A DNA stretch of 64,000 nucleotides, taken from positions 5,427 through 69,426 of the forward strand of contig JAURME010000073.1 of the NCBI GenBank assembly GCA_030830865.1, written 5' to 3'. Both the position numbers and the translations under genes were made by a program. The notes beneath the pieces are model-generated. The model did no database searches, was not told where the DNA came from, and worked only from the letters and a program-made list of their open reading frames with translations. This document shows positions 24,267-63,137 of this stretch, one piece after another (position 1 is the first letter of the stretch; every line of letters starts with the position of its first letter). The DNA is from Candidatus Nanopelagicales bacterium. Its GTDB lineage: Bacteria > Actinomycetota > Actinomycetes > S36-B12.

Positions 24267-24473
24267 GTGACCGAGAAGGTGAAGGGCCCCGCCTCGTACT
24301 TCCCCTCGATCGAGAAGAAGTACGGCCACCCGATCTCGTACTGGATGGAGCAGCTCGACCCGGTGCGCGACGCGAAGCACATGGAGCAGGTGGCGCATCT
24401 GAAGAAGATGGGCATGGGCCACGGGCACGCGAACGCCGTCGTCGCCGTGTACCGCAAGGAGCACGGGCTGTGA
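24267..24473 (+). CDS. DUF4287-like small protein
   Basis: ASYFPSIEKKYGHPISYWMEQL motif, 68 aa. Confidence 0.7.
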   Translation: MTEKVKGPASYFPSIEKKYGHPISYWMEQLDPVRDAKHMEQVAHLKKMGMGHGHANAVVAVYRKEHGL

Positions 24474-24498
24474 GCACCTGAGCCCATAAGGTGCGGAC

Positions 24499-43386: not shown

Positions 43387-43534
43387 GGGGTCATTGCCGG
43401 CGCTGGCGATGATGCACCTCCGTGCAGGTCGTTGGCCGGCCCTCGCAGGGCAGCCGGGTTCGCCCGCAGCCTAGTTGAGAACTACCGTGGGCACGTGCGG
43501 ACCGTGCCACGGGCCGCAAGAACGTGGAGGTTCC

Positions 43535-44731
<1,197 letters not shown>

Positions 44732-46810: not shown

Positions 46811-48070
46811 TCAGTCGCCTCCCGCTTCGTCGTCGTCAGTATCGCGCCAGTCGCGCGGCAGCATGTGGTCGATGACGTCGTCGATCGTGACGGCACCGAG
46901 CAGATGGTCGGCCTCGTCGACGACGGGGAGGGCGACGAGGTTGTAGGCGGCGAAGAGTCGCGTCAGGACGGCCAGGGGTGCGTCGGGACCGACGGGCATG
47001 AGGTTCACGTCCACGAGTGCGGAGACCAGCGTTCCCGGCGGCTCCCGAAGAAGCTTCTGGAAGTGGCAGGTGCCAAGGTAGCGGCCGGTGGGCGTCTCCG
47101 TCGGATTGCGCGTGATGTACACCTGTGACGCGAGCGCCGGCGACAGGTCCGGGTTGCGGATGTGCGCCAGGGCATCCGCCACGGTGGCATCCGGCGGCAG
47201 GATCACCGGCTCGGTGGTCATCAGTCCACCGGCGGAGAAGTCGTCGTAGGTGAGCAGACGGCGCAGGTCCTCAGCGTCGTCGGGCTCGATGCGCTCGAGA
47301 AGGTCCTCCGCCTGCTCCGGCGGCAGGTCCGACAGCAGGTCAGCGGCATCGGCCGGGTCCATCTCCTCGAGGACGTCGGCGGCGCGCTCGGCCTCGAGGG
47401 CCTGGACGATCTCGATGCGGTCATCGTCGTTGAGCTCCTCGAAGACGTCCGCGAGCCGCTCGTCGTCGAGTTCCCGCGCGACCTCCACCCTCCGCTTGGA
47501 GGACAGGTCGTGCAGGACGTTGGCGACGTCGGCCGGTCGCATGGTGTCGAGCTGGGCGACGAGCTGCTCTGCCGGCTGGTGCGTGGCCGGCAGGGACAGG
47601 CCTGTCACCTCGTCCCAGTCGACGACGAGGGAGTCGCCTCGGCGTCGAAGGCCGCTGCCGTGCTTGCGGACGAACAGCTCGGAGACGTACCAGTCGCGGG
47701 TCTGCGCCCTCTCCGCAGCGACATCCAGGATGGTCACCGTCTCCTGGGAAACCACGAGAGTGACGCTCCGGTCGAGGAGCTCGCCGATGACCAGGGTCTC
47801 GTTGCTGCGCTTCTCGAAGCGGCGCAGGTTGACGGTGCCGGTCACAATGACCTGGCTGGCGTCGATGGCGGTTACCTTGGTCATGGGGACGAAGATGCGG
47901 CGTCGCGGCTGGACCTCGACGACGAGTCCGGTGAGGCGCGGCGGGTTCGCGCCGATGCGCAGCACCACAATGGCGTCACGAACCTTGCCCACCTTGTCGC
48001 CGTTGGGGTCGAAGACCGCCAAACCGGCCAGGCGGGCGAGGAACACCCGGGTTGCAGCACCGATCGTCAC
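46811..48070 (-). CDS. Soluble MgtE-N/CBS-pair protein with PRC-barrel-like N-terminus (no transporter TM domain)
   Basis: Acidic MgtE_N helices (DDERLADVFEELNDDDRIEIVQALEAERAADVLEEMDPADAADLL) followed by a CBS pair. Ends without membrane segments. Confidence 0.75.
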   Translation of the reverse strand: MTIGAATRVFLARLAGLAVFDPNGDKVGKVRDAIVVLRIGANPPRLTGLVVEVQPRRRIFVPMTKVTAIDASQVIVTGTVNLRRFEKRSNETLVIGELLDRSVTLVVSQETVTILDVAAERAQTRDWYVSELFVRKHGSGLRRRGDSLVVDWDEVTGLSLPATHQPAEQLVAQLDTMRPADVANVLHDLSSKRRVEVARELDDERLADVFEELNDDDRIEIVQALEAERAADVLEEMDPADAADLLSDLPPEQAEDLLERIEPDDAEDLRRLLTYDDFSAGGLMTTEPVILPPDATVADALAHIRNPDLSPALASQVYITRNPTETPTGRYLGTCHFQKLLREPPGTLVSALVDVNLMPVGPDAPLAVLTRLFAAYNLVALPVVDEADHLLGAVTIDDVIDHMLPRDWRDTDDDEAGGD

Positions 48071-48108
48071 GTCGGCAGGCTACCGCCCATCAGGGAAGGG
48101 AGGCCCGC

Positions 48109-49035
48109 ATGGCGCAGGCTGCGCGTCCGGTGGCGACGCTCGGCGCACCCCCCGCAGCGGATCTCGCCCTGCTCGGCATCGCCGTCCTCTTCATCGCCTC
48201 GTCCGCCCCGATCATCGCCGCGATCGCCGCGCCGGCGCTCGCGATCGCCTTCTGGCGGTGCTTCCTCGGCTCGGCCCTCACCGCCCCGTGGGTGCTCCTG
48301 CGGCGGCGAGGGGAGCTTCGGTCGCTCACCCGTCGTGACGTCCTGCTCATCGGGGGTGCAGGCCTGTTGCTGGGCGCGCACTTCGCGACGTGGATCCCAT
48401 CACTTCGCTTCACCTCGGTAGCCGCGTCCACCGCACTGGTGGCGACTCAGCCGGTCTGGGCCGCGCTCATCGCCAGGTTCCGCGGGGCGCACATCCCGCG
48501 CCGTGCCTGGCTGGGCATCGCCATCGCGCTCGTCGGTGTCCTGGTCCTGACCGGGATCGATGCCTCGATTGATCCTCAGCACCTCATCGGCGACGCCCTG
48601 GCACTGATCGGCGCGATCCTGGCCGCCGGCTATGTGACCGTCGCCGAAGAGGCACGCCGTACCGTGTCGACTCCGACTCTGACGACGGGCCTGTATGCCA
48701 CGTCGGCGGTGCTGCTCCTCGGCCTCACGCTCTTGCTGGGGCAGGCGCTCGCCGGCTTCTCCCTGAAGGACTGGATCCTCATCGGACTGCTCACTCTGGG
48801 CGCGCAACTGCTGGGCCACACCCTCATCAACAAGGTTCTCGCGACGACTTCGGCCACGGTGGTGTCACTGGGCATCCTGTTCGAGATGCCGGGCGCGACC
48901 ATCATCGCGGCGCTGGCTCTGGGCCAGTTGCCGCCATGGGGCGTGATCCCGGCCGCGGCCCTGATGTTCGTCGGGATCGTGATGGTCATCCGGGCGGGGT
49001 CGCGCACCACACCGTCGGAGACGTCACCGATCTGA
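48109..49035 (+). CDS. EamA/DMT-family transporter
   Basis: 10 TM segments in two EamA repeats. Start at MAQAAR. Confidence 0.8.
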   Translation: MAQAARPVATLGAPPAADLALLGIAVLFIASSAPIIAAIAAPALAIAFWRCFLGSALTAPWVLLRRRGELRSLTRRDVLLIGGAGLLLGAHFATWIPSLRFTSVAASTALVATQPVWAALIARFRGAHIPRRAWLGIAIALVGVLVLTGIDASIDPQHLIGDALALIGAILAAGYVTVAEEARRTVSTPTLTTGLYATSAVLLLGLTLLLGQALAGFSLKDWILIGLLTLGAQLLGHTLINKVLATTSATVVSLGILFEMPGATIIAALALGQLPPWGVIPAAALMFVGIVMVIRAGSRTTPSETSPI

Positions 49036-49056
49036 ACGACATGCGACGATGGACCG

Positions 49057-49644
49057 GTGGTCCCCCTCGAACCCCCGCCCGGCACCCGGGCACTGCTGTT
49101 CGACTGCGACGGAACCCTCGTCGACACCATGGGCGTGTACCGCATCGGCTGGCGGCTGGTGTTCGGCCGCCACGGTTTCGAGATGAGCGATGAATGGTTC
49201 GACATCTGGTGCGGTCACAGCACCAAGCCCTTCATCGAGGCGGCATTCCCGGACGCGGACCCGGAGTACGTGAAGCAGGTCTCCGATGAGGGGCACCGGG
49301 CCTTCTTGGAATCCGTTCACCTCGTCGAGCCCTTCGAGCACATCGTCGAGGTGGCCCGGACTCATCACGGGCGTCTGCCGCTGGCGATCGTGTCAGGAGG
49401 GCCGCGGTCATCGGTCGTCGGGTCGCTCAGGGCGGTCGGTATCGAGGACCTCTTCGACCTCGTTGTGACTGCGGACGACGTGGAGGCCGGGAAGCCGGCA
49501 CCGGACGGCTACCTCAGGGCGATGAGCGAGCTCGGTGTCGATGCGGACCACTGCGTCGCCTACGAGGAATCCGGCAGCGGGATGTCGTCCGCCCGTGACG
49601 CCGGCATTCCGGTGATCGTGGACGTGCGACTGCACCGCGCCTGA
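49057..49644 (+). CDS. HAD-superfamily hydrolase (subfamily IA, phosphatase/beta-PGM-like)
   Basis: Motif I LLFDCDGTLVDT, motif II IVSGG, and a motif III/IV K....YEESGSG region. Confidence 0.8.
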   Translation: MVPLEPPPGTRALLFDCDGTLVDTMGVYRIGWRLVFGRHGFEMSDEWFDIWCGHSTKPFIEAAFPDADPEYVKQVSDEGHRAFLESVHLVEPFEHIVEVARTHHGRLPLAIVSGGPRSSVVGSLRAVGIEDLFDLVVTADDVEAGKPAPDGYLRAMSELGVDADHCVAYEESGSGMSSARDAGIPVIVDVRLHRA

Positions 49645-49686
49645 TACTTTCTGAGGGCTCTCACTAGTTTCTCAACCGGAGGACCC

Positions 49687-50157
49687 GTGATCGACTACGC
49701 ATCCCGCATGTTCCACGTCGGCCATCTCGTGCCTGACATCGAGGCTGCGATGGAGCAGTACTCCGCGGATCTCGGGCTGCAGTGGACCGATCTGGTCGTG
49801 CGTGAGGAGCAGCCGCTGTGGACCCCGCAGCGCGGGCAGGAGTCCGTCCTCCTGAAGTTCTGCTACTCGATGGTCGGACCCGAGCGGATCGAGCTCATCG
49901 AGGGTCCGGAGGGCACGCCGTGGTGGCACGGCGACGCGGAGAACCTGCACCACGTGGGCGTGTGGGCTGACGTCCCCGCCCTGACCGAGGAACTCGTCGA
50001 CCGTGGCTGGGAGCTGGTCATGGCGCAGAAGTCGCCGGAGGAGGGCTACGGCTCGTTCACGTATGTGCGCTCGCCGTCCGGCCTGCTGCTCGAGCCCGTC
50101 GCCGAGGCGAACAAGCCGCGTTTCGACGTCTGGTTCGCCACCGGCAAACTCGGCTGA
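49687..50157 (+). CDS. VOC (glyoxalase/bleomycin-resistance/dioxygenase) family protein
   Basis: FHVGHLVPDIEAAMEQY...IELIEG...HHVGVWADV...LLEPV. GTG start after GGAGG. Confidence 0.75.
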   Translation: MIDYASRMFHVGHLVPDIEAAMEQYSADLGLQWTDLVVREEQPLWTPQRGQESVLLKFCYSMVGPERIELIEGPEGTPWWHGDAENLHHVGVWADVPALTEELVDRGWELVMAQKSPEEGYGSFTYVRSPSGLLLEPVAEANKPRFDVWFATGKLG

Positions 50158-50198
50158 TCGCGTGGTGCGGACGAGCAGTCTGTCCTAGTCTTCGGCCC

Positions 50199-51953
50199 AT
50201 GACGACGACTCATGGACAGGTCAGCGACGACTGGTGCGTCGACAGCCCCAAGCTGAACGAGCGCTTCCCGGTCTACACCCGGTTCAACGCCAATGACGTG
50301 CTGCCGGACCCGATCACGCCGCTGGGCGCTGACCTGATCTGGACCCCGCACATCCTCCCGGGCTTCTCCAATGCCTACGCGCAGATGGGCTGCATCTCGG
50401 TGGCCGAGGCGAACGTCGACCAGGACGCGTTCCCGGCCGCCGGCTTCCGCTACGGCCACATGTACGTCAACGTCACCACGGCCCGGCTGACGGGCATCCG
50501 CGCCGGCATGGGCTGGGAGGCCATCGACGCCTCCTTCTTCGGCAGCCATCCCGATGCCCCGCCGCATGAGGATCACCCGGACGACGGCGACCCGGTCGTC
50601 ATGGAGGCCCTCGCTCAGCGCACGCAGTGGACCCTCACGACGTCCTCCTTCCCGGAACTGGAGGAGGACACCCGCATCGCCGACCGGCTGCGCGAGCAGC
50701 GCCCGGACTTCGACCAGATGAGCAACTACGCGCTGGTGGCCTATGCCCGCAGCCTCGCACCCTACGAGCGCATGACCTGGCGCGGTGAGCTCATCGGTGG
50801 CGCGCAGGCCGCCATCGGCCCGGCTGTGATCGGCTCCCTCATCCCGCCGGACATGGGCCTGTCGCCCTTCGACCTCGTGGGCCCGGCCGGAGACGTTGTG
50901 TCGGCTCAGCCGTCCTACGCGCTGTGGGACCTCTCCCGCATCGTGCGCGGGGACGCCGCCCTCATGGAGCTCTTCGACGCCGGTGTCGAGGGCATGGTCC
51001 CGTGGCTGAAGGACCACCACCCGGACTTCCACCAGAAGTTCATGGCCTTCCTCGGCGAGTTCGGCTACCGCGGGCCGTCGGAGTGGGATCTCGGGGCGGA
51101 CTCATGGGAGACCAAGCCCGAACTCCCGCTCGCCCTGATCGATCGCATGCGCTTCCTCGACGACGAGCAGTCGCCGGCGGCCCGTCGTGCTGCCGGCACG
51201 CAGGCCGCCGAGGCGGCCGTCGCCCGCGTCATGGAGGCGCTGGCCGGCAGTGAGGAGGGTCTCGCGACCCTGCGGATGGGCCTGGACTCCGCCCGTCGCT
51301 TCGCCGGCTACCGCGAACTCGGCAAGAGCAACTGCATCAAGGTCATCAACGAGGCCCGCGTGGCTCTGCGCGAGGTCGGCAAGCGGCTCACCGCGGAGGG
51401 CCACCTCGATCACCCGCAGCAGGTGTTCATGGCCCTGGACAGTGAGCTGGATCGCCTGGTGCTCCAGCCGGAACTCGTCACCGACATCCTCAAGCAGCGC
51501 GAGCAGGACTGGAAGGCCTACTTCGACATCGAGGTCCCCCTGTTCCTCGATGCGCGTGCGCCGCGCGTCCCGGTGGCCGATGTCCCGCGCAAGGCGCGTG
51601 AGTCCGGGACCGCGGCGGAAGTGGGCCAAACGCTGCAGGCCATCGGGGCTGCATCGGGCACGGCCAGCGGTCGGGCCCGCATCATCACCGACCCGTCCGC
51701 CATTGCCGAGTTCGAGCCGGGTGACGTGCTGATCGCCCCGCAGACCGATCCGTCGTGGACCCCACTGTTCGTCGTGGCGTCGGCTGTCGTCGTGGGTGTC
51801 GGCGCGCCGAACAGCCACGCGATGATCGTCAGCCGCGAACTCGGCATCCCCTGTGTGGCCGGGCTCGAGGGTGCGACTCGACTCATCCCGGACGGTGCGA
51901 CCGTTACGGTGGACGGCTCTGCCGGCACGGTGACGATCGACTCCCTGGGCTGA
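50199..51953 (+). CDS. PEP-utilising-enzyme mobile (swivel phospho-His) domain protein, RPH/PpsA-like but without an ATP-grasp domain
   Basis: C-terminus GRARIITDPSAIAEFEPGDVLIAPQTDPSWTPLF...GAPNSHAMIVSRELGIPCVAGLEGAT..IPDGATVTVDG. No nucleotide-binding N-terminal domain is visible. Confidence 0.75.
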   Translation: MTTTHGQVSDDWCVDSPKLNERFPVYTRFNANDVLPDPITPLGADLIWTPHILPGFSNAYAQMGCISVAEANVDQDAFPAAGFRYGHMYVNVTTARLTGIRAGMGWEAIDASFFGSHPDAPPHEDHPDDGDPVVMEALAQRTQWTLTTSSFPELEEDTRIADRLREQRPDFDQMSNYALVAYARSLAPYERMTWRGELIGGAQAAIGPAVIGSLIPPDMGLSPFDLVGPAGDVVSAQPSYALWDLSRIVRGDAALMELFDAGVEGMVPWLKDHHPDFHQKFMAFLGEFGYRGPSEWDLGADSWETKPELPLALIDRMRFLDDEQSPAARRAAGTQAAEAAVARVMEALAGSEEGLATLRMGLDSARRFAGYRELGKSNCIKVINEARVALREVGKRLTAEGHLDHPQQVFMALDSELDRLVLQPELVTDILKQREQDWKAYFDIEVPLFLDARAPRVPVADVPRKARESGTAAEVGQTLQAIGAASGTASGRARIITDPSAIAEFEPGDVLIAPQTDPSWTPLFVVASAVVVGVGAPNSHAMIVSRELGIPCVAGLEGATRLIPDGATVTVDGSAGTVTIDSLG

Positions 51954-51958
51954 TCGGG

Positions 51959-52507
51959 GTGCAGGAGCCGCTCATCCGGTATCCGATCGCCCAGTACGCA
52001 TACGTGGTCAACGATCTCGACGAGGGGATCCGTCACTGGGTCGAGGTCATGGGGGCGGGGCCGTTCTTCGTCAGCCGCAACCATCGCGGCAAGGACCACA
52101 CGTACCGTGGCACGCTCGATGAGGCGGTTTTCTCCTATGCCTTCGGGCAGGCCGGCCCTGCGCAGATCCAGTTGATCCAGTGCATGGACGATTCCCCGTC
52201 GGTCTACCGTGACATGTTCGCCCCGGGTGAGGAGGGCTTCCATCATGTGGCCTGCCTCGTGCCGGCTGCTGACATGCAGGCCGAGGTGAAGCGGTTCACC
52301 GATGCCGGCTACGAGGTCGGATCGACGCTGCACTCGTACGTTCCCGTTGCGTACCTCGACTGCCGCAGCGCCCTCGGCTTCTTCGTCGAACTCCACGGGC
52401 TCAACGACGATGTCGACGAATTGTTCCGCGAGATCCGCGAGGCTCACGAGCAGTGGGACGGCGTCACTGATCCGGTGCGCGTGCGGTCGAAGACCAGTTC
52501 GCTGTGA
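51959..52507 (+). CDS. VOC family protein (paralogue A)
   Basis: GTG 51959 lies 5 nt after the upstream stop. IAQYAYVVNDLDEGIRHW...GEEGFHHVA. Confidence 0.75.
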   Translation: MQEPLIRYPIAQYAYVVNDLDEGIRHWVEVMGAGPFFVSRNHRGKDHTYRGTLDEAVFSYAFGQAGPAQIQLIQCMDDSPSVYRDMFAPGEEGFHHVACLVPAADMQAEVKRFTDAGYEVGSTLHSYVPVAYLDCRSALGFFVELHGLNDDVDELFREIREAHEQWDGVTDPVRVRSKTSSL

Positions 52508-53061
52508 CGGCTTCCCCGCTGCTGACCCACCCGGTGGTGCAGCACGCCTTCGTGGTCACCGACCTCGATGACGGCGTCGAGCGTTGGCGGCGCACGCTCG
52601 GCGCCGGGCCGTTCGTCGTCATGCGCGACTTCGTCGGTCGAGAACTGGTCTACCGGGGCGAGCCCAGCACGACGGCCGTCGACTACGCCTTCGGGCAGTC
52701 CGGCGACATCCAGGTACAGCTCATCGCCCAGTCCGATCCGGGGTCGTCGATCTACCGCGACATGTACGCCCCGGGTGAGGAGGGCTTCCATCACGTCTGC
52801 GCCCTCATCCCGATGGAGGATTGGGAGCGGCAGGTGGGGGTCTTCGCCGACGCGGGCTACGTCCTCGCGGCATCACTCATGACCTCGGCTCCCGCGGTCT
52901 ACTTCGACTGCCGGGACGATCTCGGGTGCTTCGTCGAGCTGTACGGTCGCACGGAGCGATCGAGCGGGTTCTTCGCGCACCTGCGAGACCTGCACCGGTC
53001 GTGGGACGGTGTCACCGATCCCGTCCGCTCCCGATCAGACATGAAGAGGACCCATGGTTGA
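52504..53061 (+). CDS. VOC family protein (paralogue B)
   Basis: GTGA overlap with paralogue A. VQHAFVVTDLDDGVERW...GEEGFHHVC. Confidence 0.75.
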   Translation: MTASPLLTHPVVQHAFVVTDLDDGVERWRRTLGAGPFVVMRDFVGRELVYRGEPSTTAVDYAFGQSGDIQVQLIAQSDPGSSIYRDMYAPGEEGFHHVCALIPMEDWERQVGVFADAGYVLAASLMTSAPAVYFDCRDDLGCFVELYGRTERSSGFFAHLRDLHRSWDGVTDPVRSRSDMKRTHG

Positions 53062-53473
53062 GACACCGTTCGAGCTGATCCCGCTCGCCACCGTTCGTGT
53101 CGAGCGAGGGGACATCCATCGCATGGGGGCGACGGCCTTCCACAAGCGCGTCATCGGCGGGATCGCCGAGGGCCGGTGGGAGGGGGAGCGCCTCAGCGGT
53201 GACATCGTCCCTCCGGGTGGTGATTGGGCGATCCCCTCGGGGGACGGGACGATCATGCTGCTGGAGGTGCGGCAGGTCCTCCGCACCGATGACGGTGCCC
53301 TCATCTATGTCACCTACACCGGTCGTGCGGATCGTGGGCGGGGCACCTACACCGTGGCTCCCACCTTCGAGACCGACGACGAGCGGTATGCATGGATCAA
53401 CGGCATCCAGGCCGTCGGTCAGGGACGCAACGATGGCGACGCCATCGTCTACGAGATGTTCGAGGTGCGTTGA
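53054..53473 (+). CDS. DUF3237 (UPF0311)-like beta-barrel protein
   Basis: 139 aa. G.I.G..L.G.I.PGG.DW......G...L.VR..L.TDDGA.IYV.Y.G pattern. 8-nt overlap with the upstream VOC gene. Confidence 0.65.
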   Translation: MVETPFELIPLATVRVERGDIHRMGATAFHKRVIGGIAEGRWEGERLSGDIVPPGGDWAIPSGDGTIMLLEVRQVLRTDDGALIYVTYTGRADRGRGTYTVAPTFETDDERYAWINGIQAVGQGRNDGDAIVYEMFEVR

Positions 53474-53537: not shown

Positions 53538-53945
53538 ATGACGTGTGTGGAGAAGACTCGACGCGGCCGCACCCGGTGTGCCGCTGCCATGGCAGTACTC
53601 ATTTCTGTCGGCGCCCTGACGCTCGCCATCTCGCCGTCGGCGCACGCCGAGGAGTGCGGCAAGGTGACGTATGCGGACGGCACCGTTGGTCCGAGCGTGT
53701 GCCCAGATGGCAGCCCCAACAGCGCAGTGACCTCCGCCTACCGTACGTACGCCCCTGCGGTGATGGCCCTGAAAGAGAACACGAAGAAGGCCCGACTGAA
53801 GGATGCAGTCAAGGCCGATTGCAGGGCAGGTGTCTCCAAACCGGCGGTGTACGACGCCATCGAATACCAGACGGCCCGATTCGGCTGGTCCAGAGCGACG
53901 GTCAACCCGGTCGTGAAGTACTTGATCAACACCGAGGCCTGCTGA
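53538..53945 (+). CDS. Small secreted cysteine-containing hypothetical protein
   Basis: Signal peptide ...LTLAISPSAHA then EEC. The mature ~97 aa carry 4 Cys including the C-terminal residue. More A/T-containing codons than its neighbours. Confidence 0.5.
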   Translation: MTCVEKTRRGRTRCAAAMAVLISVGALTLAISPSAHAEECGKVTYADGTVGPSVCPDGSPNSAVTSAYRTYAPAVMALKENTKKARLKDAVKADCRAGVSKPAVYDAIEYQTARFGWSRATVNPVVKYLINTEAC

Positions 53946-54027: not shown

Positions 54028-54783
54028 ATGAGCGGGTCAGCCATCGTCACGGGGGCCGGTGCCGGCATCGGCGAGGCCACGGCCCGCATGCTGAGCGAGC
54101 GCGGGCACTCGGTGATCGCAGCGGATGTCTCAGCCGAGGCGCTGACATGGACGGACGGCGTCGAGGGGGTCACGCCCTTCGTCGGGGATGTGAGTCAGGA
54201 GCGCGACAACCAGCTGATGGTGGCGACGGCACTCGACGCCCACGGGCGACTCGACGTGCTCGTCCTGAACGCCGGCATTGCCCGGCGCACCCACTGGACA
54301 GGTGACGACGCGATCGAGGCGTTCGACCGGATCATGGCCGTGAACGCGCGCGGGGTCGTCCTCGGCATCCGCCACGGTGCGCCAGCGATCGCCGAGTCAG
54401 GCGGAGGAGCCATCGTCGTGGTCGGATCAACGTCCGGGGTGCGCGCGGATCCCGAGCGGTTCGCCTACGACGCTTCGAAGGCCGCAGCCATCAATGCTGC
54501 GCGAGCTGCCGCACTGGACTGGGCTGTCAAGGGGGTGCGGGTCAACGTGATGGCTCCCGGGCCGACGATGACGGCGATCCTGCAGGGCGGGAGGATCACA
54601 CCGGAGCATCTCGACGAGCTCACCCGCAACATCCCCCTGCAGCGCATGGGGACGCCTGAGGAGCAGGCCGAGGCGATCTGCTTCCTCGCTTCGCCGGCGG
54701 CGAGCTTCATCACCGGTGCCGTTCTGATGTGTGACGGGGGAGTGACCGCGCAGGCGGGCATCTTCCCGCCGCCGCGCGCGTGA
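54028..54783 (+). CDS. SDR family oxidoreductase
   Basis: TGAGAGIGEA, NAGI, YDASKAA motifs. Confidence 0.85.
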   Translation: MSGSAIVTGAGAGIGEATARMLSERGHSVIAADVSAEALTWTDGVEGVTPFVGDVSQERDNQLMVATALDAHGRLDVLVLNAGIARRTHWTGDDAIEAFDRIMAVNARGVVLGIRHGAPAIAESGGGAIVVVGSTSGVRADPERFAYDASKAAAINAARAAALDWAVKGVRVNVMAPGPTMTAILQGGRITPEHLDELTRNIPLQRMGTPEEQAEAICFLASPAASFITGAVLMCDGGVTAQAGIFPPPRA

Positions 54784-55407: not shown

Positions 55408-56811
55408 ATGGGCGCATGGGATTTCGACGTCATCGTCGTGGGCTCGGGAGCCGCCGGGCTGTCGGCAGCGCTCGCCGCCGCCGAGGACGGTGCGAGCGTC
55501 CTGGTCGCCGAGTCACAGGGCATCATCGGCGGCTCGTCTCGTCTCTCCGGCGGTCTGATGATGGGCGCCGGCACCCGCTACCAGAAGGCATTGGGGATCG
55601 AGGACTCCCCGGAGGCCCTGTTCCATGACTACATGACCCTGAACCAGTGGAAGGTCGAGTCCGCCGTGGTCGAGCGGCTCACCCAGCGTGCGGGCGCTGC
55701 GGTCGAGTGGCTGGGTGACCACGGTGTCGAGTTCTACGACCAGATGGTCTACGGGGGCGACGAGACCGTGCCGCGCGTGCACTGCCCGATCGGCCGCGGT
55801 CAGGCCGTCGTCGACGTCCTTTACGCGCGCTGTCGCGAGGCAGGCGTGGAGTTCGCTCTCGGTCAGCGGATCGATCGACTCGTCATCGTCGACGGCGCCG
55901 TCCACGGAGTCGCGGTCGGCGATGACGAGATCACGGCGGGCGCCGTTGTCGTGGCCTCCGGCGGGTTCGGTGCCAATGACGAGAAGCGGGCCGAGCTGTT
56001 CCCGTCGGTGTTCGACACTGGATGGTCGTACTACATCGGGGCCGACGGCTCCCAGGGTGATGCACTGGACTTCACGAAGGACGTGAACGCGCAGGTCACC
56101 GGCTATGACCGTGGGCTTCGACTTCTGCACACCGACTTCGACACGATGTACGAGGCGTACATCCCTGGCTGGTTGGTGCTGGTGAACCGTGAGGGTCGGC
56201 GCTTCTGCAACGAGACCGCGCCCTACGGGATCATGGACGGCCTGCTGGCCGAGCAGGGCGATGTCGCATTCGCGATCCTCGACCACCGACGTCTCGTCGA
56301 AGCCACCGAACTGGGCGTGGCGCGCTACAAGCAGTCCATTCCCGGCTCGACGAAGAGGCAGAGCCCGCACTGGAACCTCGACGTCTTCGAGCTGATGATC
56401 AAGGAGGGCAAGGTCCACGTGGCCCACTCCTTGGAAGAGCTGGCCGGCAAGATCGCTGTGCCGGTCGAGAACCTGATGGCGACCGTCGAGCGCGTGAACC
56501 ACCTCACCGAGGTCGGTGAGGACGTCGACTACCTCAAGGACCCGAAGTTCCTCGAGCCCATCGCGGATGGTCCCTTCTACGGTGTCGAGGTGCGACCCGC
56601 CACGTGCTGCTTCACCGCCTGCGGCCTTCGGATCGACCGTGACGCCAACGTCCTGGACTCCGCGGGGCGCGCGATCCCCGGGCTGTTCGCGGCCGGCGAG
56701 GTGTGCGGCGGCGTCATCGGCCCCCGGTACGTGGGCAGCGGCAACTCCTACGGAAACTGCGTGACGATGGGTCGGGTGGCAGGCCAGTCCGCCGCCGCGG
56801 TGGCAGGCTGA
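55408..56811 (+). CDS. FAD-dependent oxidoreductase (fumarate reductase/KstD-like flavoprotein)
   Basis: DVIVVGSGAAGLSAALAAAEDGASVLVAE dinucleotide fold. C-terminal GLFAAGEV.GG motif. Confidence 0.8.
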   Translation: MGAWDFDVIVVGSGAAGLSAALAAAEDGASVLVAESQGIIGGSSRLSGGLMMGAGTRYQKALGIEDSPEALFHDYMTLNQWKVESAVVERLTQRAGAAVEWLGDHGVEFYDQMVYGGDETVPRVHCPIGRGQAVVDVLYARCREAGVEFALGQRIDRLVIVDGAVHGVAVGDDEITAGAVVVASGGFGANDEKRAELFPSVFDTGWSYYIGADGSQGDALDFTKDVNAQVTGYDRGLRLLHTDFDTMYEAYIPGWLVLVNREGRRFCNETAPYGIMDGLLAEQGDVAFAILDHRRLVEATELGVARYKQSIPGSTKRQSPHWNLDVFELMIKEGKVHVAHSLEELAGKIAVPVENLMATVERVNHLTEVGEDVDYLKDPKFLEPIADGPFYGVEVRPATCCFTACGLRIDRDANVLDSAGRAIPGLFAAGEVCGGVIGPRYVGSGNSYGNCVTMGRVAGQSAAAVAG

Positions 56812-56816
56812 CGAGT

Positions 56817-57308
56817 ATGGACATCGACGAACTCGTCGCCCGAGAACAGATCCGCGAGGCGACCCTGCGATACGCACGGGGCGTGGATCGCCTCGATGCC
56901 GACCTGATGAAGTCGGCTTACTGGCCCGATGCCACGGACGACCACGGGCGGTTCGTCGGCAACGGCTGGGAGTTCGCCGACCGTGTCGTGGGCACCCACG
57001 ACCGTTGGTCGTCGACGATGCACTGCGTCTACAACCACAGCATCGAGTTCGACGACGCCGACCATGCCCGAGGCGAGCTCTACAACGTCACATACCTCGT
57101 CCCGAGGGACGGGAGTCCATGGAACGTGTGGCTGGGTCGGTACCTCGATAGCTACGAGCGCCGCGACGGTGAATGGCGGATCAGCCACCGCACCTGCGTG
57201 CACGAGTCGACGACCACCATTGAGCACGCGCCGATGCCGGGTGACATGTCGAAATTCCGGACCGGTGAGGATGACCGTCCGCGTGGGGATCGTCCCCTCG
57301 GAATCTGA
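56817..57308 (+). CDS. SnoaL-like / NTF2-fold protein
   Basis: IREATLRYARGVDRLDADLMKSAYWPDATDDHGRFVG...YERRDGEWRI. ATG lies 5 nt after the flavoprotein stop. Confidence 0.7.
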   Translation: MDIDELVAREQIREATLRYARGVDRLDADLMKSAYWPDATDDHGRFVGNGWEFADRVVGTHDRWSSTMHCVYNHSIEFDDADHARGELYNVTYLVPRDGSPWNVWLGRYLDSYERRDGEWRISHRTCVHESTTTIEHAPMPGDMSKFRTGEDDRPRGDRPLGI

Positions 57309-57310: not shown

Positions 57311-58936
57311 TCAGCCCGCAGATGAGGCGCTGAGACCGGCCAGGCGGCCGAACACGAGAATCGGCCCCAGGGTGCCGCCGGCACCGCCGTAGGCCATGGC
57401 TGTCGGTGCAGCCGCGACATTGCCTGCCGCGAAGAGCCCCGCGATGGGAGCCCCGTCGTGGTCCAGGACCCGGCCCTGCGGGTCGGTCCGCGGACCCCCG
57501 CTGGTGCCGAGCGTCCCGGACTCAATCTCGACGGCATAGAAGGGCCCGGTGTCGATGCGCCCCATCGTCGAGGCCTTCAGGAAGCGGAAGTCTCCGTCGC
57601 CGCTCCAGCGGTCGTAGGCGCTGTCGCCGCGATGGAAGTCCTCGTCCTGCTCGGCGTCGACGAATCCGTTCCAGCGCGCCACGGTCTGTTCGAGTCCCTG
57701 GGTATCGATTCCGCAGGTGTTCGCGAGGTCGGCCAGCGTCGGGGCACTCGTCACCCACTCAGGAATGGGGGTTCCGGCCGGAGCGCCGAAGGTTCCGTAC
57801 TTCTGCGCGTGTGTCTGATCAAAGATGAGCCACGCGGGCAGGTTGGCGTAGGTGAAGGTCAGCGGGTCCAGTTGGTGGAAGGCGCCTCCGAGCGCGTTGT
57901 AGTTGGTGGCCTCGTCGGTGAACCGACGACCGGCTCGGTTGACCATGATCGAGCCGGGGAGGGTCCGCTCGCGGTTGACGAGGTTCGAGCGGACCGCCCC
58001 GAATGCCTCGTCGCCGGGGATCTTCACGGCCGGGACCCACCACGCCTGGCCCATGTTGCCCAGCTGCGCACCGATCGACATCGCCATGCGCAGGCCATCG
58101 CCGGTGTTCGTCGGTATGGACGTGGGAGCGGTCATCGGCCCGCGGAGGAAGGCGGCCACAAGGTCGGCATCCCACTCGAAGCCGCCGGTGGCGAGAACGA
58201 CACCGCGTGACGCGCGCACCTCGTGCGCCTCTCCATCGACCTCGACCCGGACACCGGCCACTCGGTCGTCCTCCAGCAGCAGGTCGGTGGCGCGGGCGTT
58301 GACCACCGGCTCTACACCGAGGTCGAGCAGGGCCTTGATGATCGGGCCGACGAGGGCATTGCCGCAGCCGCGCAGGTCCTCGTCGATGCGCCGCTGCATC
58401 TCCTCCTCCGACAGGTAGCCGGTGCCGCCGCCGAGCGTGGTGTCGGTGATCTTCAGGTGCGCACTCCGGCGGCTGCGAGCCACCTTGTCCTGCCAGTCAC
58501 CGAGCGAGGAGTAGCGGAACAGGCCGGGGTCGAGTGAACGTCCGCCGTCGGGCTTGCCGCCCGGATTCTCCGGGTGGTAGTCGGGGTAGTGGGGGAGGAT
58601 CGTGAACTTCGCCTCGGTCGTGTCCTCAAGCCACTGGATCGTTGCGCGCCCGTTGTCGACGAAGGTCTCGGCCATCCGTGGGTCCATCCGACCGAGGGAC
58701 AGGGATGCGAGGTACGCCAACGCCTCCTCGCGTGAATCCGGAATGCCCTGCTCGTCCTGATGGTGGTTGAGAGGGATCCACGGGACTCCGCCGGAGATGG
58801 CGCTCGATCCGCCGAGCACGTCCCCCTTCTCGAGCAGGGTCACGGAGACGCCGGTCTGGGCGGCAGCGAGGGCGGCGGTCAGGCCAGCGGCCCCACTGCC
58901 GAGGACGATCACGTCGGCATCGAAACCGGAAGGCAT
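57311..58936 (-). CDS. KstD-like FAD-binding dehydrogenase (3-oxosteroid 1-dehydrogenase family)
   Basis: DVIVLGSGAAGLTAALAAAQTGVSVTLLEKGDVLGGSSAISGG...GLFAAGNVAA. 541 aa. Confidence 0.8.
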   Translation of the reverse strand: MPSGFDADVIVLGSGAAGLTAALAAAQTGVSVTLLEKGDVLGGSSAISGGVPWIPLNHHQDEQGIPDSREEALAYLASLSLGRMDPRMAETFVDNGRATIQWLEDTTEAKFTILPHYPDYHPENPGGKPDGGRSLDPGLFRYSSLGDWQDKVARSRRSAHLKITDTTLGGGTGYLSEEEMQRRIDEDLRGCGNALVGPIIKALLDLGVEPVVNARATDLLLEDDRVAGVRVEVDGEAHEVRASRGVVLATGGFEWDADLVAAFLRGPMTAPTSIPTNTGDGLRMAMSIGAQLGNMGQAWWVPAVKIPGDEAFGAVRSNLVNRERTLPGSIMVNRAGRRFTDEATNYNALGGAFHQLDPLTFTYANLPAWLIFDQTHAQKYGTFGAPAGTPIPEWVTSAPTLADLANTCGIDTQGLEQTVARWNGFVDAEQDEDFHRGDSAYDRWSGDGDFRFLKASTMGRIDTGPFYAVEIESGTLGTSGGPRTDPQGRVLDHDGAPIAGLFAAGNVAAAPTAMAYGGAGGTLGPILVFGRLAGLSASSAG

Positions 58937-58991: not shown

Positions 58992-59762
58992 GTGATGGCA
59001 ATCGAGGGACTGCTCGTGGAGCGGCAGGGGGGAGTCCTTCGCATCACCTTCGATCGGCCCGACCGCCTCAACGCCCTGACGGCGCCGTTGGTCGATGCAG
59101 CGACGGAGCAGGTGCTGGTGGCGGCGGACGACGGTACGCGGGTGATCCTCCTGACCGGCTCCGGTCGGGCCTTCAGCGCCGGCGCTGATGTGGGCCCCGA
59201 TGGTGCGGCCCCCGGGCTGGACACCCTCGACGCGGCCAACCGTTTCACCATGGCTCTCACGACGTCCCCGCTTCCGGTCGTTGCCGCCGTGAACGGTGTG
59301 GCCGCCGGTGTGGGCTGCTCCTTCGCCCTCGCTGCGGACATCACTGTCGCGAAGGAGTCGGCCTCCTTCATGCTCGCGTTCACCAAGATCGGCCTGATGC
59401 CCGACGGCGGCGCATCACTCCTCGTGCCGGCAGCGGTGGGCCGGGCCCGTGCGGCCCGCATGGCCCTGCTGGCCGAGAAGGTGCCCGCTCCCCGGGCTGC
59501 TGAGTGGGGTCTCATCGCCGATGTGGTCCCCGACGACGACTTCGACGCCTATATCGAGGGCCTTGTCGGACAGTTGGCGGCGGGTGCCCCGCGAGCCCTG
59601 GCCGCGACGAAGGCCATCATCAACGCCGCCACGATCGACGCCCTGCCGAACATCCTCGCCGCCGAGCGCGCCGGGCAGGGCCCCCTGCTGGAGTCCGAGG
59701 ACTTCGCCGAGGGCGTGACCGCCTTCCAGGAAAAGCGCGCGGCTCAGTTCACCGGCCGCTGA
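58992..59762 (+). CDS. Enoyl-CoA hydratase/isomerase (crotonase) family protein
   Basis: ITFDRPDRLNAL...LTGSGRAFSAGADV...AAVNGVAAGVGCSFALAADI. Confidence 0.85.
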   Translation: MMAIEGLLVERQGGVLRITFDRPDRLNALTAPLVDAATEQVLVAADDGTRVILLTGSGRAFSAGADVGPDGAAPGLDTLDAANRFTMALTTSPLPVVAAVNGVAAGVGCSFALAADITVAKESASFMLAFTKIGLMPDGGASLLVPAAVGRARAARMALLAEKVPAPRAAEWGLIADVVPDDDFDAYIEGLVGQLAAGAPRALAATKAIINAATIDALPNILAAERAGQGPLLESEDFAEGVTAFQEKRAAQFTGR

Positions 59763-59878
59763 GGAGCACCCGCCGGTTTGCCCAATTACCGGGCGGATTC
59801 GTGGATGTCCTACTAATCTCGGGACACTGACGCCCGGTGATGTCCTCCGGGCCCCCAACAGAATGAAGGAGCACCACC

Positions 59879-60661
59879 ATGGGCCAGTTGGACGGCAGGG
59901 TCGCGGTCATCACCGCCAGCACCCGCAGCATCGGTCGCGGCATCGCCGAGGCCTTCCACGCCGAGGGCGCCAGCGTCGTCCTCAGCGGACGCAACGCAGA
60001 GAAGGGCCAGAAGGCCATCGAGGAGATGGGCGGCGGAGACCGCCTCCACTTCATCGCGGCGAACGCCTCCAAGCAGGCAGACGTTGAGGCACTCGTCGAC
60101 GGTACTGTGGAGAAGTTCGGCCGAGTCGACATCGTCGTACCCAATGCCGGTGGCGTCGCCAACACCGCACCTGTCGCCATGATGAGCGACGAGGAGTGGC
60201 AGTACGAGCTCGACTTCAACATCAACCAGACCTTCTGGATGGCCCGTCGGGCGCTGAAGTACATGGTGCCGCAGCAGTTCGGCCGCATCATCGGCATGAG
60301 CTCGATGTACGGCAAGATCACCACGATGGCCGTCCCCGGCTACATCACCAACAAGCACGCCATCATCGGCTTCTGCAAGGCGCTGGCCAAGGAGGTCGGG
60401 CAGTCCGGTATCACCGCCAACGCCGTCTGCCCCGGTTTCGTCCCCACCGACATGTTCTACGAGACGGGGCCGGCCACCGTCGAGGCCATGGGTCTGCCGG
60501 ATCTCGATGCCCTCGCGGCGGTCATGTACTCCGTGACGGCGCTGCAGCGCCCCAACACCGTCGAGGAGGTCGCGGCCGCGTGCGTGCTGCTCGCCTCCGA
60601 TCTGGGTGGCGGCATCACCGGTACGACCATCAACGTGGATGCGGGCGCCTCGCCGTACTAG
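59879..60661 (+). CDS. SDR family oxidoreductase
   Basis: VAVITASTRSIGRGIA, NAGG, Y...K (YITNKHA) motifs. Confidence 0.85.
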   Translation: MGQLDGRVAVITASTRSIGRGIAEAFHAEGASVVLSGRNAEKGQKAIEEMGGGDRLHFIAANASKQADVEALVDGTVEKFGRVDIVVPNAGGVANTAPVAMMSDEEWQYELDFNINQTFWMARRALKYMVPQQFGRIIGMSSMYGKITTMAVPGYITNKHAIIGFCKALAKEVGQSGITANAVCPGFVPTDMFYETGPATVEAMGLPDLDALAAVMYSVTALQRPNTVEEVAAACVLLASDLGGGITGTTINVDAGASPY

Positions 60662-60707
60662 GCCTCACCCTCACGGGCACCAGCACTCACAACTGAAGGG
60701 CAAGGCG

Positions 60708-61496
60708 TTGTCCCATCTCGGAAACCTGGATCAGTGGTTCGACGGCCGCTCAGCGATCGTCACCGGAGGTGCAGGAGGGATGGGACGCGCCATCGCTCTG
60801 GCCTTCTCCGCCGCCGGCTCTCGCGTCGTCGTCAGTGACGTCGCGGAGGCCGGCGGCCAGGAGACGGTCGACCTCATCCGCGCCGCCGGTGGTGAGGCCC
60901 AGTTCATCCGCACCGACGTCTCCAAGGATGCCGACGTGCGCGCGATGGTCGACCTCGCCGTCTCCTCATACGACGGCCTCGACTTTGCCGTCAACGCCGC
61001 TGCGATCGAGTTCGAGCTCGACTACCTCGCCGACCTCGCCGAGAGCGACTGGGACCGCATGATCGAGGTCAACCTGAAGTCGATCTTCCTGTGCATGAAG
61101 CACGAGATCAATGCGATGCTTGGCACCGACCGCGAGGGGTCGGCCATCGTCAATATCGCTTCGACGAACTCCTACCGGCCGCAGCCGCACCAGTCGGCCT
61201 ACACCGCCAGCAAGTTCGGAGTCCTCGGTGTGACCAAGTCCGCTGCCGTCGACTATGCACCCCGTGGCATCCGCATCAACGCAATCTGCCCGGGATCCAT
61301 CGACACCCCGATGCTCCGCGGCGCGATCGAGAAGCGTGGCCGCGACCCGCAGGAGGTCGCAGACCGGCTGTCCCTGATCGGTCGGTTCGGCACGGTCGAC
61401 GAGATCGCTGCAGCAGCCCTGTGGCTGTGCTCAGGCGCAGCCGGCTTCACCATCGGCCACGCCCTGGCCGTCGACGGCGGCTACCTGTCCCGATGA
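60708..61496 (+). CDS. SDR family oxidoreductase
   Basis: AIVTGGAGGMGRAIA, NAAI, YTASKFG motifs. TTG 60708 is preceded by GAAGGGCAAGG. Confidence 0.8.
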   Translation: MSHLGNLDQWFDGRSAIVTGGAGGMGRAIALAFSAAGSRVVVSDVAEAGGQETVDLIRAAGGEAQFIRTDVSKDADVRAMVDLAVSSYDGLDFAVNAAAIEFELDYLADLAESDWDRMIEVNLKSIFLCMKHEINAMLGTDREGSAIVNIASTNSYRPQPHQSAYTASKFGVLGVTKSAAVDYAPRGIRINAICPGSIDTPMLRGAIEKRGRDPQEVADRLSLIGRFGTVDEIAAAALWLCSGAAGFTIGHALAVDGGYLSR

Positions 61497-61668
61497 CGGG
61501 GTCAGCCGCCTACGACGTCGTCGTCCTCGGTACCGATGCCGCAGGGCTCACTGCTGCGGTTCGCGCGGCGTCGAGGAGGCCCTGCAGATGGAGTTCGGGA
61601 TCTCGTCGTACCTCATGTTCGCCCCCGACGGCCTCGAGGGCGTGCGCGCCCTGATCATCGACAAGTGA
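61493..61668 (+). pseudogene. Chimeric gene remnant: N-terminus of a KstD-like flavoprotein fused out of frame to the C-terminus of a crotonase/HIBCH-like protein
   Basis: Frame 1 gives MTGSAAYDVVVLGTDAAGLTAAVRAA (dinucleotide fold) then nonsense. Another frame gives ...EEALQMEFGISSYLMFAPDGLEGVRALIIDK* (61666-61668 TGA). Confidence 0.7.
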
Positions 61669-61693
61669 CCACTCGCGTGGGGTGGGAGTTCGC

Positions 61694-62539
61694 TCAGGAG
61701 TAGTCGTAGAAGCCGCGGCCGGACTTGCGGCCGAACATGCCCGCCTCGACGTGCCGCTTCAGCAGCGCCGGGGGAGCGAACCGGTGCTCGAGGTGCTCGG
61801 CATACAGGCTCTCCGACACCAGCAGCATGGTGTCCAGCCCGATCATGTCGCACAGCGTCAGCGGACCCATCGGCATACCGCAGCCGCTGACCATGCCCTC
61901 GTCGATGTCCTCCTTCGACGCGACACCGTTCTCCAGAGACCGGATCGCGTCGAGCAGATAGGGCACCAGGATGGCGTTGACGACGAAGCCCGACCGGTCC
62001 TTGGCCCGGATGACCTTCTTGCCCAGCACATCGGCGCAGAACTCGGCCGTGCGATCGGCCACGGACGGATCGGTCTGGATCGCCGAGACGACCTCGACCA
62101 GCGGCATCACCGGCACGGGGTTGAAGTAGTGCGTTCCGAGGACTCGTCCCGGGATGCGGCTCGCCGCCGCCAGCTGGGCGATCGGGATGGACGACGTGTT
62201 GCTGGCGATGATGGCGTCGTCGGAGAGGATGTCGTCGAGCCTCCCGATGAGCTCGACCTTGTCGTCGAGGGATTCGCGGATGACCTCGGTGACGAACTCC
62301 CGATCCGCGAGGTCGGCGAGGTCTGAGCTCCAGCGAATGCGCGCCAGGATGTTGGCCGCAGGCTCGCCGAGCTTGCCCTTCTCCTCCGCCTTGGCGAGGG
62401 ATGCGGCCATGCGGGCCTGTGCCTTCTCCAGCGCCTCGGGGAACATGTCGACGACGACCACGTCGCAGCCCCCCTTGGCGCCGATCTCCGCGACACCTGC
62501 GCCCATGACGCCGCAGCCGACGACACCCATGCGATTCAT
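61694..62539 (-). CDS. 3-hydroxyacyl-CoA (3-hydroxybutyryl-CoA) dehydrogenase
   Basis: MGVVGCGVMGAGVA...ASNTSS...HYFNPVPVM...DRSGFVVNA...GPLTLCDMIGLD. Start at MNRMG. Confidence 0.88.
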   Translation of the reverse strand: MNRMGVVGCGVMGAGVAEIGAKGGCDVVVVDMFPEALEKAQARMAASLAKAEEKGKLGEPAANILARIRWSSDLADLADREFVTEVIRESLDDKVELIGRLDDILSDDAIIASNTSSIPIAQLAAASRIPGRVLGTHYFNPVPVMPLVEVVSAIQTDPSVADRTAEFCADVLGKKVIRAKDRSGFVVNAILVPYLLDAIRSLENGVASKEDIDEGMVSGCGMPMGPLTLCDMIGLDTMLLVSESLYAEHLEHRFAPPALLKRHVEAGMFGRKSGRGFYDYS

Positions 62540-62600
62540 GCTGTGATCTCTTCCGTGTGATGACATGCGCGTCCAGGTCGAGCGCGCGAGCAGAGGATGT

Positions 62601-63107: not shown

Positions 63108-63137
63108 GGTGGTGTTCCTCCCCGGGCATCTATGGCG

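Follow-up and report, generated by a model that had tools for sequence, protein, structure and literature searches.

Split dikinases related to rifampin phosphotransferase (RPH) act in the breakdown of phenol, cresol and acetovanillone (PMC12167813, PMC12624787). For the Rhodococcus system HpeHI, it has been reported that HpeI is the ATP-grasp protein and HpeH the 'swivel and rifampin-binding' half, that HpeH and RPH share about 20% identity across 473 residues, and that the H581Q substitution in HpeH abolishes activity (PMC12167813). CreHI and PpsAB are homologues of HpeHI (PMC12167813), and AcvAB of Sphingobium SYK-6 is a further one (PMC12624787). In the Hpe pathway HpeHI phosphorylates, the product is carboxylated and HpeD dephosphorylates; among characterised proteins, NagD is its nearest relative (PMC9618137). 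In this study, we analysed a 64,000-nucleotide stretch of DNA from Candidatus Nanopelagicales bacterium (GenBank assembly GCA_030830865.1, contig JAURME010000073.1, positions 5,427 to 69,426; this whole stretch is called the window, and coordinates refer to it), and in particular the gene for a protein of 584 amino acids, here named SWV, which resembles the HpeH half of these enzymes. A preliminary description of this DNA had stated that no characterised system of such composition was known, which does not hold in view of the split RPH-like dikinases PpsAB, CreHI and HpeHI (PMC12167813) and AcvAB (PMC12624787). While the concept of a split RPH-like kinase is already known, what differs here is that there is no ATP-grasp gene beside SWV or its closer relatives. 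With moderate confidence, we favour the view that SWV is the 'H' component of an RPH-type, trans-loaded kinase for catabolic small molecules, in which His540 is loaded by a partner protein and a HAD hydrolase removes the phosphate. SWV and the features within it are as follows.

50199..51953, + strand: SWV, 584-residue ATP-grasp-less RPH-like protein with an Rph_4th helical substrate-binding domain and a C-terminal swivel
51711..51926, + strand: swivel (PEP-utilizers mobile) domain, residues 505-576 (Pfam PF00391, 4.3e-23), aligning to the His domain of Listeria RPH (RPH-Lm)
51816..51818, + strand: codon of His540, the predicted phospho-carrier (translation GAPNSHAMIVS)

The C-terminal mobile domain of the type that utilises phosphoenolpyruvate (PEP), which the preliminary description had recognised from a peptide that is indeed present, was confirmed by a Pfam scan of 50199-51953: PF00391 at residues 505-576 is the only domain found and PF01326 is absent. 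The candidate phospho-histidine pointed out there is H540. The assignment of PF27448 (Rph_4th) to SWV is based on the precomputed domains of homologues at 53-96% identity, including the best database match of SWV, P0001 (96% identity). At the sequence level, SWV can be recognised as RPH-like just in the distal stretch of the middle region and in the His domain; in the NCBIfam model for rifamycin phosphotransferase, NF041857 (864 positions), its residues 240-580 correspond to positions 526-863 with 143.8 bits, the cutoff of this RPH equivalog being 999 bits, and residues 228-580 align to positions 520-836 of NF004520/PRK05865 (854 residues). An AlphaFold2 model of SWV built on 38 homologues has a mean predicted local distance difference test score (pLDDT) of 89.3 and a predicted template modelling (TM) score of 0.89. 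When this model was compared with the PDB by Foldseek, RPH-Lm was the only full-length match (5fbu, 5fbt and 5hv1; E 7e-23 to 3e-22, query-normalised TM score 0.66-0.67, about 590 columns, 20% identity), and the first approximately 470 residues, whose likeness to the substrate-binding region of RPH the preliminary description had suggested, align to that region. Pyruvate phosphate dikinase (PPDK), PpsA, pyruvate kinase and Enzyme I align over the swivel of about 120 residues only. As RPH alone matches over the full length and the others match just at the swivel, the predicted structure indicates that SWV is the rifampin-binding-type and swivel domains of RPH without the ATP-grasp domain. SWV is not itself an RPH by the equivalog score, the lack of PPDK_N and the partial coverage of the model (positions 526-863 only), nor does it have the architecture of PEP synthase or PPDK, of which the swivel alone matches while neither an ATP-grasp domain nor a PEP/pyruvate TIM barrel is present.

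H540 aligns with the catalytic histidine of RPH-Lm, and S539 and H540 are invariant among the 38 homologues (52-96% identity), with 97 invariant alignment columns in all. The loop that carries the histidine reads V532-G-V-G535-A536-P-N-S-H540, with valine at the T/S position and GA for GG, and hence differs from the T/S-x-x-G-G-x-x-x-H loop (PMC12167813). The same variant is found family-wide, members with an adjacent ATP-grasp gene included, and the motif VGAxxSHA(M/A)IV is identical in partner-paired and orphan members.

An exhaustive search returned 760 representatives at 50% identity (E<=1e-30) with whole-query matches of about 550-600 residues, and at least 590 SWV-family loci are present among species-representative genomes, mainly in Actinomycetota (Mycobacteriales, Pseudonocardiales, Acidimicrobiia and many metagenome-assembled genomes) and some in Chloroflexota, often with several paralogs per genome. 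Among the intact homologues listed, all 42 at 63-96% identity have 573-597 residues, and overall the length is 571-618 residues, with PF27448 and PF00391 in every one. The gene is not a 5'-truncated pseudogene, as the preliminary description had allowed it might be; the length of the family is uniform and its conservation strong. For the related idea that SWV is a functionless, decaying remnant of a full-length RPH or PpsA, the missing ATP-grasp domain could be cited. However, the uniform length, the invariant columns, the confident model and a third-codon-position GC content (GC3) of 0.90, similar to that of the adjoining genes, are not what a decaying gene would present, and there are just 41 nucleotides between SWV and the gene upstream. 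We rejected this reading as effectively refuted by the conservation data and hold it to be next to impossible.

Some family members are joined to other domains. In P0283 (849 residues), a short-chain dehydrogenase/reductase (SDR) is fused N-terminally to a full-length SWV-family member, an architecture like that of the 854-residue 'sugar epimerase family protein' NF004520, and judged from this arrangement a fusion of the P0283 type appears to link the swivel protein functionally to a dehydrogenase. SWV-family genes are often found in tandem or in the order swivel, His_Phos_1, Rieske, swivel (tandem or double swivel cases are L010, L017-L020, L028-L031, L039, L044, L048, L051 and L068, and the proteins P0309 and P0361), and some of the proteins are double-length fusions with two PEP-utilizers domains. 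The tandem and double-length forms hint at possible hetero-oligomers or serial specificities.

The preliminary description had also noted that neither SWV nor the rest of the window contains an ATP-grasp domain, and three kinds of search agree with this. Pfam scans of 33 open reading frames (ORFs) of the window, comprising 26 of the 28 called genes of at least 300 residues, gave no PPDK_N or ATP-grasp match. The two large genes outside these scans (HtrA-like, 43475-44731, and MgtE-like, 46811-48070) were covered by the other searches, in which an ad hoc hidden Markov model of PPDK_N had zero matches among all six-frame ORFs of the window, and tblastn with PPDK, truncated PPDK, PPDK-like and Escherichia coli PpsA queries matched only the swivel region (51369-51932). 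We then grouped the neighbourhoods of relatives by the identity of their swivel protein to SWV, namely at least 63% (12 loci), 44-55% (19 loci) and below 44% (57 loci), and recorded the neighbours within 10 kb. In the most distant group a PPDK_N gene is present in 11 of 57 loci, far more than expected for a gene that occurs once or twice per genome, and in L061, L072 and L075 it is immediately adjacent. All six of these neighbours that were tested consist of PPDK_N and a PEP-utilizers swivel of their own within 460-750 residues ('truncated PPDK') and are not HpeI-like. The same pairing is seen in the cultured Rhodococcus plasmid clusters L094 and L095. In L094, on a plasmid of Rhodococcus pyridinivorans, an SWV-family member 35% identical to SWV is encoded together with a 495-residue PPDK_N and swivel protein, a P450, an aldehyde dehydrogenase, an alcohol dehydrogenase, SurE and an EcKL/APH kinase, a gene content that we take to be similar to that of the cre cluster. 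In addition, P0282 is a fusion of SWV, PPDK_N and swivel. Trans-loading by an ATP-grasp protein encoded elsewhere is favoured because of this adjacency in distant relatives, the Rhodococcus pairing, the P0282 fusion and the shared His loop. Thus, of the two options originally put forward for SWV, a split enzyme with its nucleotide-binding partner elsewhere is the best-supported reading.

Phosphatases of three unrelated folds recur near SWV-family genes. A HAD gene is present in 7 of the 12 loci of the close clade, and His_Phos_1 in 10 of the 19 loci at 44-55% identity, with a swivel gene on either side of it in L017, L019 and L020; it is also found in L265, L093 and L096. SurE occurs in L077, L081, L082, L084, L086 and L094, directly upstream of the swivel gene in the Gordonia and Amycolatopsis loci and on the R. 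pyridinivorans plasmid. We regard this replacement of one phosphatase by others of unrelated fold as the best contextual evidence that a phosphorylated intermediate may be made and later hydrolysed. The proposal of a phosphorylation/dephosphorylation module made in the preliminary description is in agreement with these recurrent phosphatases, although the idea has a characterised analogue in HpeHI/HpeD and is in this respect not new.

In the mechanism that we propose, the helical domain of SWV would bind a small molecule and His540 of the swivel would hand the phosphoryl group to its hydroxyl. A nucleotide-binding protein whose gene lies beyond the window would load His540 in trans, and the likeliest loader would be a truncated PPDK of the kind that distant family members have next to them, in their vicinity or as a fusion. 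The acceptor is presumably a hydrophobic catabolic intermediate, plausibly with a phenolic or an enolisable cyclic hydroxyl; the adjoining SDR and KstD-like desaturases could make such a hydroxyl, on which Rieske, VOC and DUF3237 enzymes could act. The HAD hydrolase, encoded two genes upstream, would strip the phosphate once the phosphorylated intermediate has undergone its transformation, as HpeD does. The top 120 matches of a profile of truncated PPDKs in the protein collection are from Pseudonocardia and Chloroflexi, which says nothing either way about a truncated PPDK in the lineage of the window. Several observations speak against this mechanism. The window, with 50 kb upstream and 12 kb downstream of SWV, has no ATP-grasp gene, and the 31 loci whose swivel protein is at least 44% identical to SWV are all without a canonical PPDK_N gene inside 10 kb. 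The partners of the distant relatives have a swivel of their own, unlike HpeI, PpsB and CreI, and therefore the trans-loading chemistry would not simply be that of HpeHI. The strict T/SxxGGxxxH loop of HpeH, CreH, PpsA and RPH is VxxGAxxSH in SWV. Finally, HpeH on its own can move phosphate from one phenol to another, namely from 4-phosphoacetophenone to acetovanillone (PMC12167813), so that a role without a partner is conceivable.

This last observation leads to the alternative that SWV is a partner-free transphosphorylase or mutase, in which His540 shuttles a phosphoryl group between small molecules and the donor could be a product of an APH/EcKL-type kinase. It would suit this alternative that the majority of the family has no adjacent ATP-grasp gene and that APH/EcKL-type genes recur within 10 kb of swivel genes (5 of 12, 3 of 19 and 10 of 57 loci in the three groups, and in addition L094:12351-13439, L265:18765-19790 and the P0057 locus; another instance is L001:5885-7141 on the - strand). 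However, no APH gene adjoins the unit in the window, the ATP-grasp adjacency and the fusions of distant members point to dikinase ancestry, and the exchange catalysed by HpeH is a partial reaction whose physiological role has not been demonstrated. We judge a transphosphorylase to be decidedly unlikely.

As a putative trans-loaded H component, SWV can be likened to the two-component RPH-like dikinases in fold, domain order, invariant histidine and associated phosphatase, HpeH being compared by its description only. HpeH of Rhodococcus rhodochrous GD02 has, like SWV, an RPH-like substrate-binding region, a swivel histidine, no ATP-grasp domain and about 20% identity to RPH. The two differ in that HpeH is a protein of about 71 kDa with His581 and the loop SxxGGxxCH, whereas SWV has 584 residues with His540 and the loop VxxGAxxSH. 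The neighbours of the hpe genes include a biotin carboxylase, in contrast to the VOC, DUF3237, SDR and KstD-like neighbours of SWV. A HAD-type phosphatase is common to both, HpeD being NagD-like and the HAD-IA hydrolase of the window only predicted; NagD is a HAD-superfamily phosphatase. The gene hpeI, for a protein of 40.6 kDa with an ATP-grasp domain only, is listed beside hpeH (UZF45676/UZF45677; PMC12624787), whereas the window has no ATP-grasp gene within its 64 kb and SWV lacks the adjacent ATP-grasp (I) component by which H components are recognised. Further marks of this class are a pairwise identity of about 45% with HpeH, CreH or PpsA, and the phosphorylation of a phenolic substrate from ATP with AMP and Pi as products. 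CreHI of Corynebacterium glutamicum (4-cresol) and PpsAB(C), the phenylphosphate synthase of Thauera aromatica, are split in the same way, with the histidine subunit binding the substrate; their partner subunits are encoded alongside and their substrates are simple phenols. In the plasmid collection searched there was no AcvA/HpeH-type gene, the Sphingobium matches being plain PpsA. RPH-Lm (5FBS, 5FBT, 5HV1) is the best whole-length structural match and has its catalytic histidine aligned with that of SWV, but it carries an N-terminal ATP-grasp domain in the same chain and is only 20% identical. The SDR-swivel fusions of the NF004520/PRK05865 type, presumably the type of Mycobacterium tuberculosis Rv2047c, share the ATP-grasp-less middle and swivel region and are likewise uncharacterised; they differ from SWV in their N-terminal SDR/epimerase domain, the SDR of the window being a separate adjoining gene. 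PTS Enzyme I and PPDK have a homologous swivel with a phospho-carrier histidine; SWV for its part has neither a PEP/pyruvate TIM barrel nor an ATP-grasp domain. Overall, SWV departs from the known split dikinases in three respects: it has no adjacent ATP-grasp gene, it has the GA loop, and the visible partners of its relatives are ATP-grasp proteins with their own swivel.

The other genes of the unit and those that follow it are listed below, VOC denoting vicinal oxygen chelate proteins.

48109..49035, + strand: EamA-family transporter (Pfam EamA 1.3e-20), divergent from mgtE
49057..49644, + strand: HAD-IA hydrolase (Pfam HAD_2 6.7e-27), candidate phosphatase for the phosphorylated intermediate
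49687..50157, + strand: VOC1, 156 residues, single-domain Glyoxalase_4 (Pfam 3.3e-16)
51959..52507, + strand: VOC2, 182 residues, Glyoxalase_4 (Pfam 3.5e-13)
52504..53061, + strand: VOC3, 185 residues, Glyoxalase_4 (Pfam 3.1e-11), tandem paralog of VOC2
53054..53473, + strand: DUF3237 protein (Pfam 8e-28)
54028..54783, + strand: SDR dehydrogenase (Pfam adh_short_C2 9e-55), continuing the conserved run
55408..56811, + strand: FAD_binding_2 flavoprotein of KstD/fumarate-reductase type (Pfam 3.4e-54)
56817..57308, + strand: SnoaL_4-like protein, by synteny with the SnoaL_4 genes of L007 and L092
57311..58936, - strand: second KstD-like flavoprotein (Pfam FAD_binding_2 8e-77)

The seven + strand genes from EamA to DUF3237 were all found where the preliminary description had placed them, with the domains it had named, the start at 48109 being internal to a longer ORF (48052-49035). 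The gaps between them are 21, 42, 41 and 5 nucleotides, followed by overlaps of 4 and 8, and there is no terminator-like site inside the unit; the results of the promoter and terminator scan did not exceed those of shuffled sequences, and for this reason the operon-like layout is compatible with an operon but does not prove one. In NCBIfam the HAD-IA hydrolase has sugar-phosphate phosphatases as top matches, every one far under cutoff. VOC1 has a single match among PDB sequences, the structural-genomics entry 3GM5, VOC2 and VOC3 are 49% identical, and the DUF3237 protein matches uncharacterised UPF0311 proteins in the PDB and, weakly, PhnH (6JJS). The flavoprotein at 55408..56811 resembles flavocytochrome c, vinyl phenol reductase and 3-oxosteroid 1-dehydrogenase, all below cutoff, and that at 57311..58936 is closest to 4-oxocyclohexanecarboxylate 2-dehydrogenase (460 bits, cutoff 1000) and 3-oxosteroid 1-dehydrogenase. 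Between the DUF3237 and SDR genes there is a 135-residue ORF (53538-53945, + strand; GC3 0.79) with a signal-peptide-like N terminus, which has no Pfam match and is not present at any related locus. At the 3' end of the window (58992-63989) there are genes for an enoyl-CoA hydratase, two SDRs, a 3-hydroxyacyl-CoA dehydrogenase (- strand) and an acyl-CoA mutase (- strand) that is cut by the edge. Judged by these genes, the wider setting of the window is catabolic, with KstD-type desaturases, SDRs, enoyl-CoA hydratase, 3-hydroxyacyl-CoA dehydrogenase and acyl-CoA mutase. An ORF with a tyrosinase central domain (23030-24487, - strand; Pfam 4.6e-39) has no connection to the swivel finding.

This setting bears on the suggestion that SWV belongs to a module that confers resistance to an antibiotic (rifamycin-type) or a xenobiotic and includes an export pump, to which the fold similarity with the rifampin-binding domain of RPH and the EamA transporter gene upstream could be thought to point. 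The identity to RPH and the equivalog score are low, however, and HpeH, which is equally distant from RPH, has small phenols as substrates; SDR, KstD-like, enoyl-CoA hydratase, 3-hydroxyacyl-CoA dehydrogenase and Rieske genes make up a catabolic context, and EamA is not conserved as a neighbour. Nothing points to the antibiotic substrate that the preliminary description had mentioned, and we rejected rifampin resistance in view of the poor equivalog score and the catabolic setting, so that we consider a resistance module highly improbable. The EamA gene adjoins mgtE in every relative and its distance from the HAD gene is 0.7-4 kb. In L001, L004, L007, L027 and L092 the two are separated by 1.2-4 kb of other genes, which are an opposite-strand APH-like gene in L001, L004 and L027 and three same-strand genes (an FGGY kinase and two flavoproteins) in L007 and L092, while L002 has a plain gap. 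EamA is thus a boundary gene beside mgtE with a weak claim to membership of the unit, in which it had initially been included.

In the 12 close loci the order is HAD, VOC1, (77-residue ORF and Rieske alpha), swivel, VOC2(/3), DUF3237, SDR, FAD_binding_2, SnoaL_4; the co-directional run of relatives therefore extends beyond DUF3237, the very next gene in L002, L003 and L092 being that of the SDR. The pair HAD-VOC1 lies upstream of the swivel gene in 7 of these loci, and L007 and L092 have a single VOC copy where the window has VOC2 and VOC3. At the VOC1-swivel junction, several relatives (L001:8121-10000, L007:8291-9957 and the P0057 locus) have the 77-residue ORF and a Rieske alpha protein of 459-478 residues, and the window (50158-50198), L002, L005 and L092 have a short gap only. 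The conservation of VOC-swivel-VOC-VOC-DUF3237 that had been proposed as a check was seen at 63% identity and above (VOC in 10, DUF3237 in 8 and HAD in 7 of 12 loci), but is largely gone at 44-55% (VOC in 3 of 19 loci, DUF3237 and HAD in none). Recurrent in this second group are a Rieske oxygenase (13 of 19), an SDR (13), a KstD-like flavoprotein (8), a SnoaL-like protein (7) and a second swivel copy (8). Because the VOC company is largely lost at this distance, we take it as shallow synteny and rejected VOC proteins as obligate partners of the swivel. The special partnership of a swivel domain with VOC-fold proteins that had been envisaged finds no support, the adjacency of VOC, DUF3237 and HAD being confined to relatives at 63% identity or more, and we read VOC and DUF3237 proteins as pathway enzymes specific to the lineage.

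A further alternative for the loading of His540 comes from the 44-55% group, in which the PPDK_N matches (L019, L020 and L025) are full-length PPDK-like proteins; we rejected them as ordinary ATP-grasp partners on account of their degenerate ATP motifs. Such a gene also occurs at L096:6001-8544, L097:6001-8520 and L100:10001-12556. The PPDK-like protein has a canonical swivel histidine and a PEP/pyruvate TIM barrel (PEP-utilizers_C), but the Pfam PPDK_N model does not match it, TIGR01828 aligns from residue 176 only (643 bits, cutoff 843), and the ATP-site motifs GGKGANL, SMPGMMDT, AQGEDVV and DVEFT/LQxR are replaced family-wide. The catalytic roles of these ATP-site residues are those of Clostridium symbiosum PPDK. 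An ORF of about 205 residues without family match nearly always precedes the gene. According to this alternative, the PPDK-like 'putative PEP-binding protein' (about 847 residues) would load His540 from PEP in an Enzyme I-like, PEP-driven relay; the enzyme, with its dead nucleotide site, and the 205-residue partner would charge several substrate-specific H proteins, which would phosphorylate catabolic intermediates. It has been reported that Enzyme I alone phosphorylates rifampicin in vitro (PMC13099321), which would be in line with such a relay.

PPDK-like orthologues, searched for with the N terminus of the L020 protein, are on the same contigs as swivel-family members in nine cases. The gene lies 43 kb downstream of the SWV orthologue in the P0030 genome, with a second swivel paralog at a distance of 2 kb, and in WGLX01000008.1 it is 51 kb downstream; in contig_17092 it is 6.5 kb from a swivel paralog, the distances to paralogs overall being 2-6.5 kb. 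An earlier locus search with universal PPDK motifs returned ordinary PPDKs in 79 of 80 loci and was replaced by a family-specific DNA pattern, which gave 84 stretches, 50 of them genuine. The exact pattern placed the PPDK-like gene in 7 of the 12 close-clade assemblies, and in the lineage of the window a swivel paralog, B, is present in 8 of 27 eight-kb stretches around this gene. The close neighbour, however, is paralog B, with 49% identity to SWV, and not the SWV orthologue. The PPDK-like genes of Streptomyces, Actinomadura and Geodermatophilus are without an SWV in their vicinity (0 of 22 stretches), and for this reason the linkage may be lineage synteny. The enzyme could also be self-contained and pass the phosphate of PEP to a ligand of its own altered N-domain, and transfer from histidine to histidine between two swivel domains is unproven in the superfamily. 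The gene is not visible in the window, which ends 12 kb past the SWV gene; it might lie directly past the 3' end. The gene set at 58992-63989 resembles what lies on the left side of the PPDK-like locus L098 of Streptomyces. We regard the charging of SWV by such a relay as unlikely, and consider it distinctly unlikely that the orphan Rph_4th and swivel proteins of Actinomycetota are acceptors of a PEP-driven phospho-His relay rather than halves of ATP dikinases. Charging of orphan swivel proteins by the PPDK-like enzyme, as suggested by gene linkage, is a lead and not a finding.

For CreHI and PpsAB, phosphorylation activates or protects in catabolism (as summarised in PMC12167813), and it is only for a few two-component dikinases that a phosphorylation step has been shown to activate or protect in the catabolism of aromatic compounds. 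The SWV locus is part of a far larger uncharacterised family, which is found in catabolic gene islands of Actinomycetota, Acidimicrobiia and Chloroflexota from soil and freshwater and most members of which have no adjacent ATP-binding subunit. Candidates for their charger are a shared truncated PPDK, PEP via the PPDK-like enzyme, or a phosphorylated donor molecule. Learning the charger and the substrate of these orphans would bring new classes of natural organic matter under the 'phospho-handle' logic, and the same knowledge would put right the labels 'pyruvate, water dikinase' and 'rifampicin phosphotransferase' that these proteins widely and wrongly bear.

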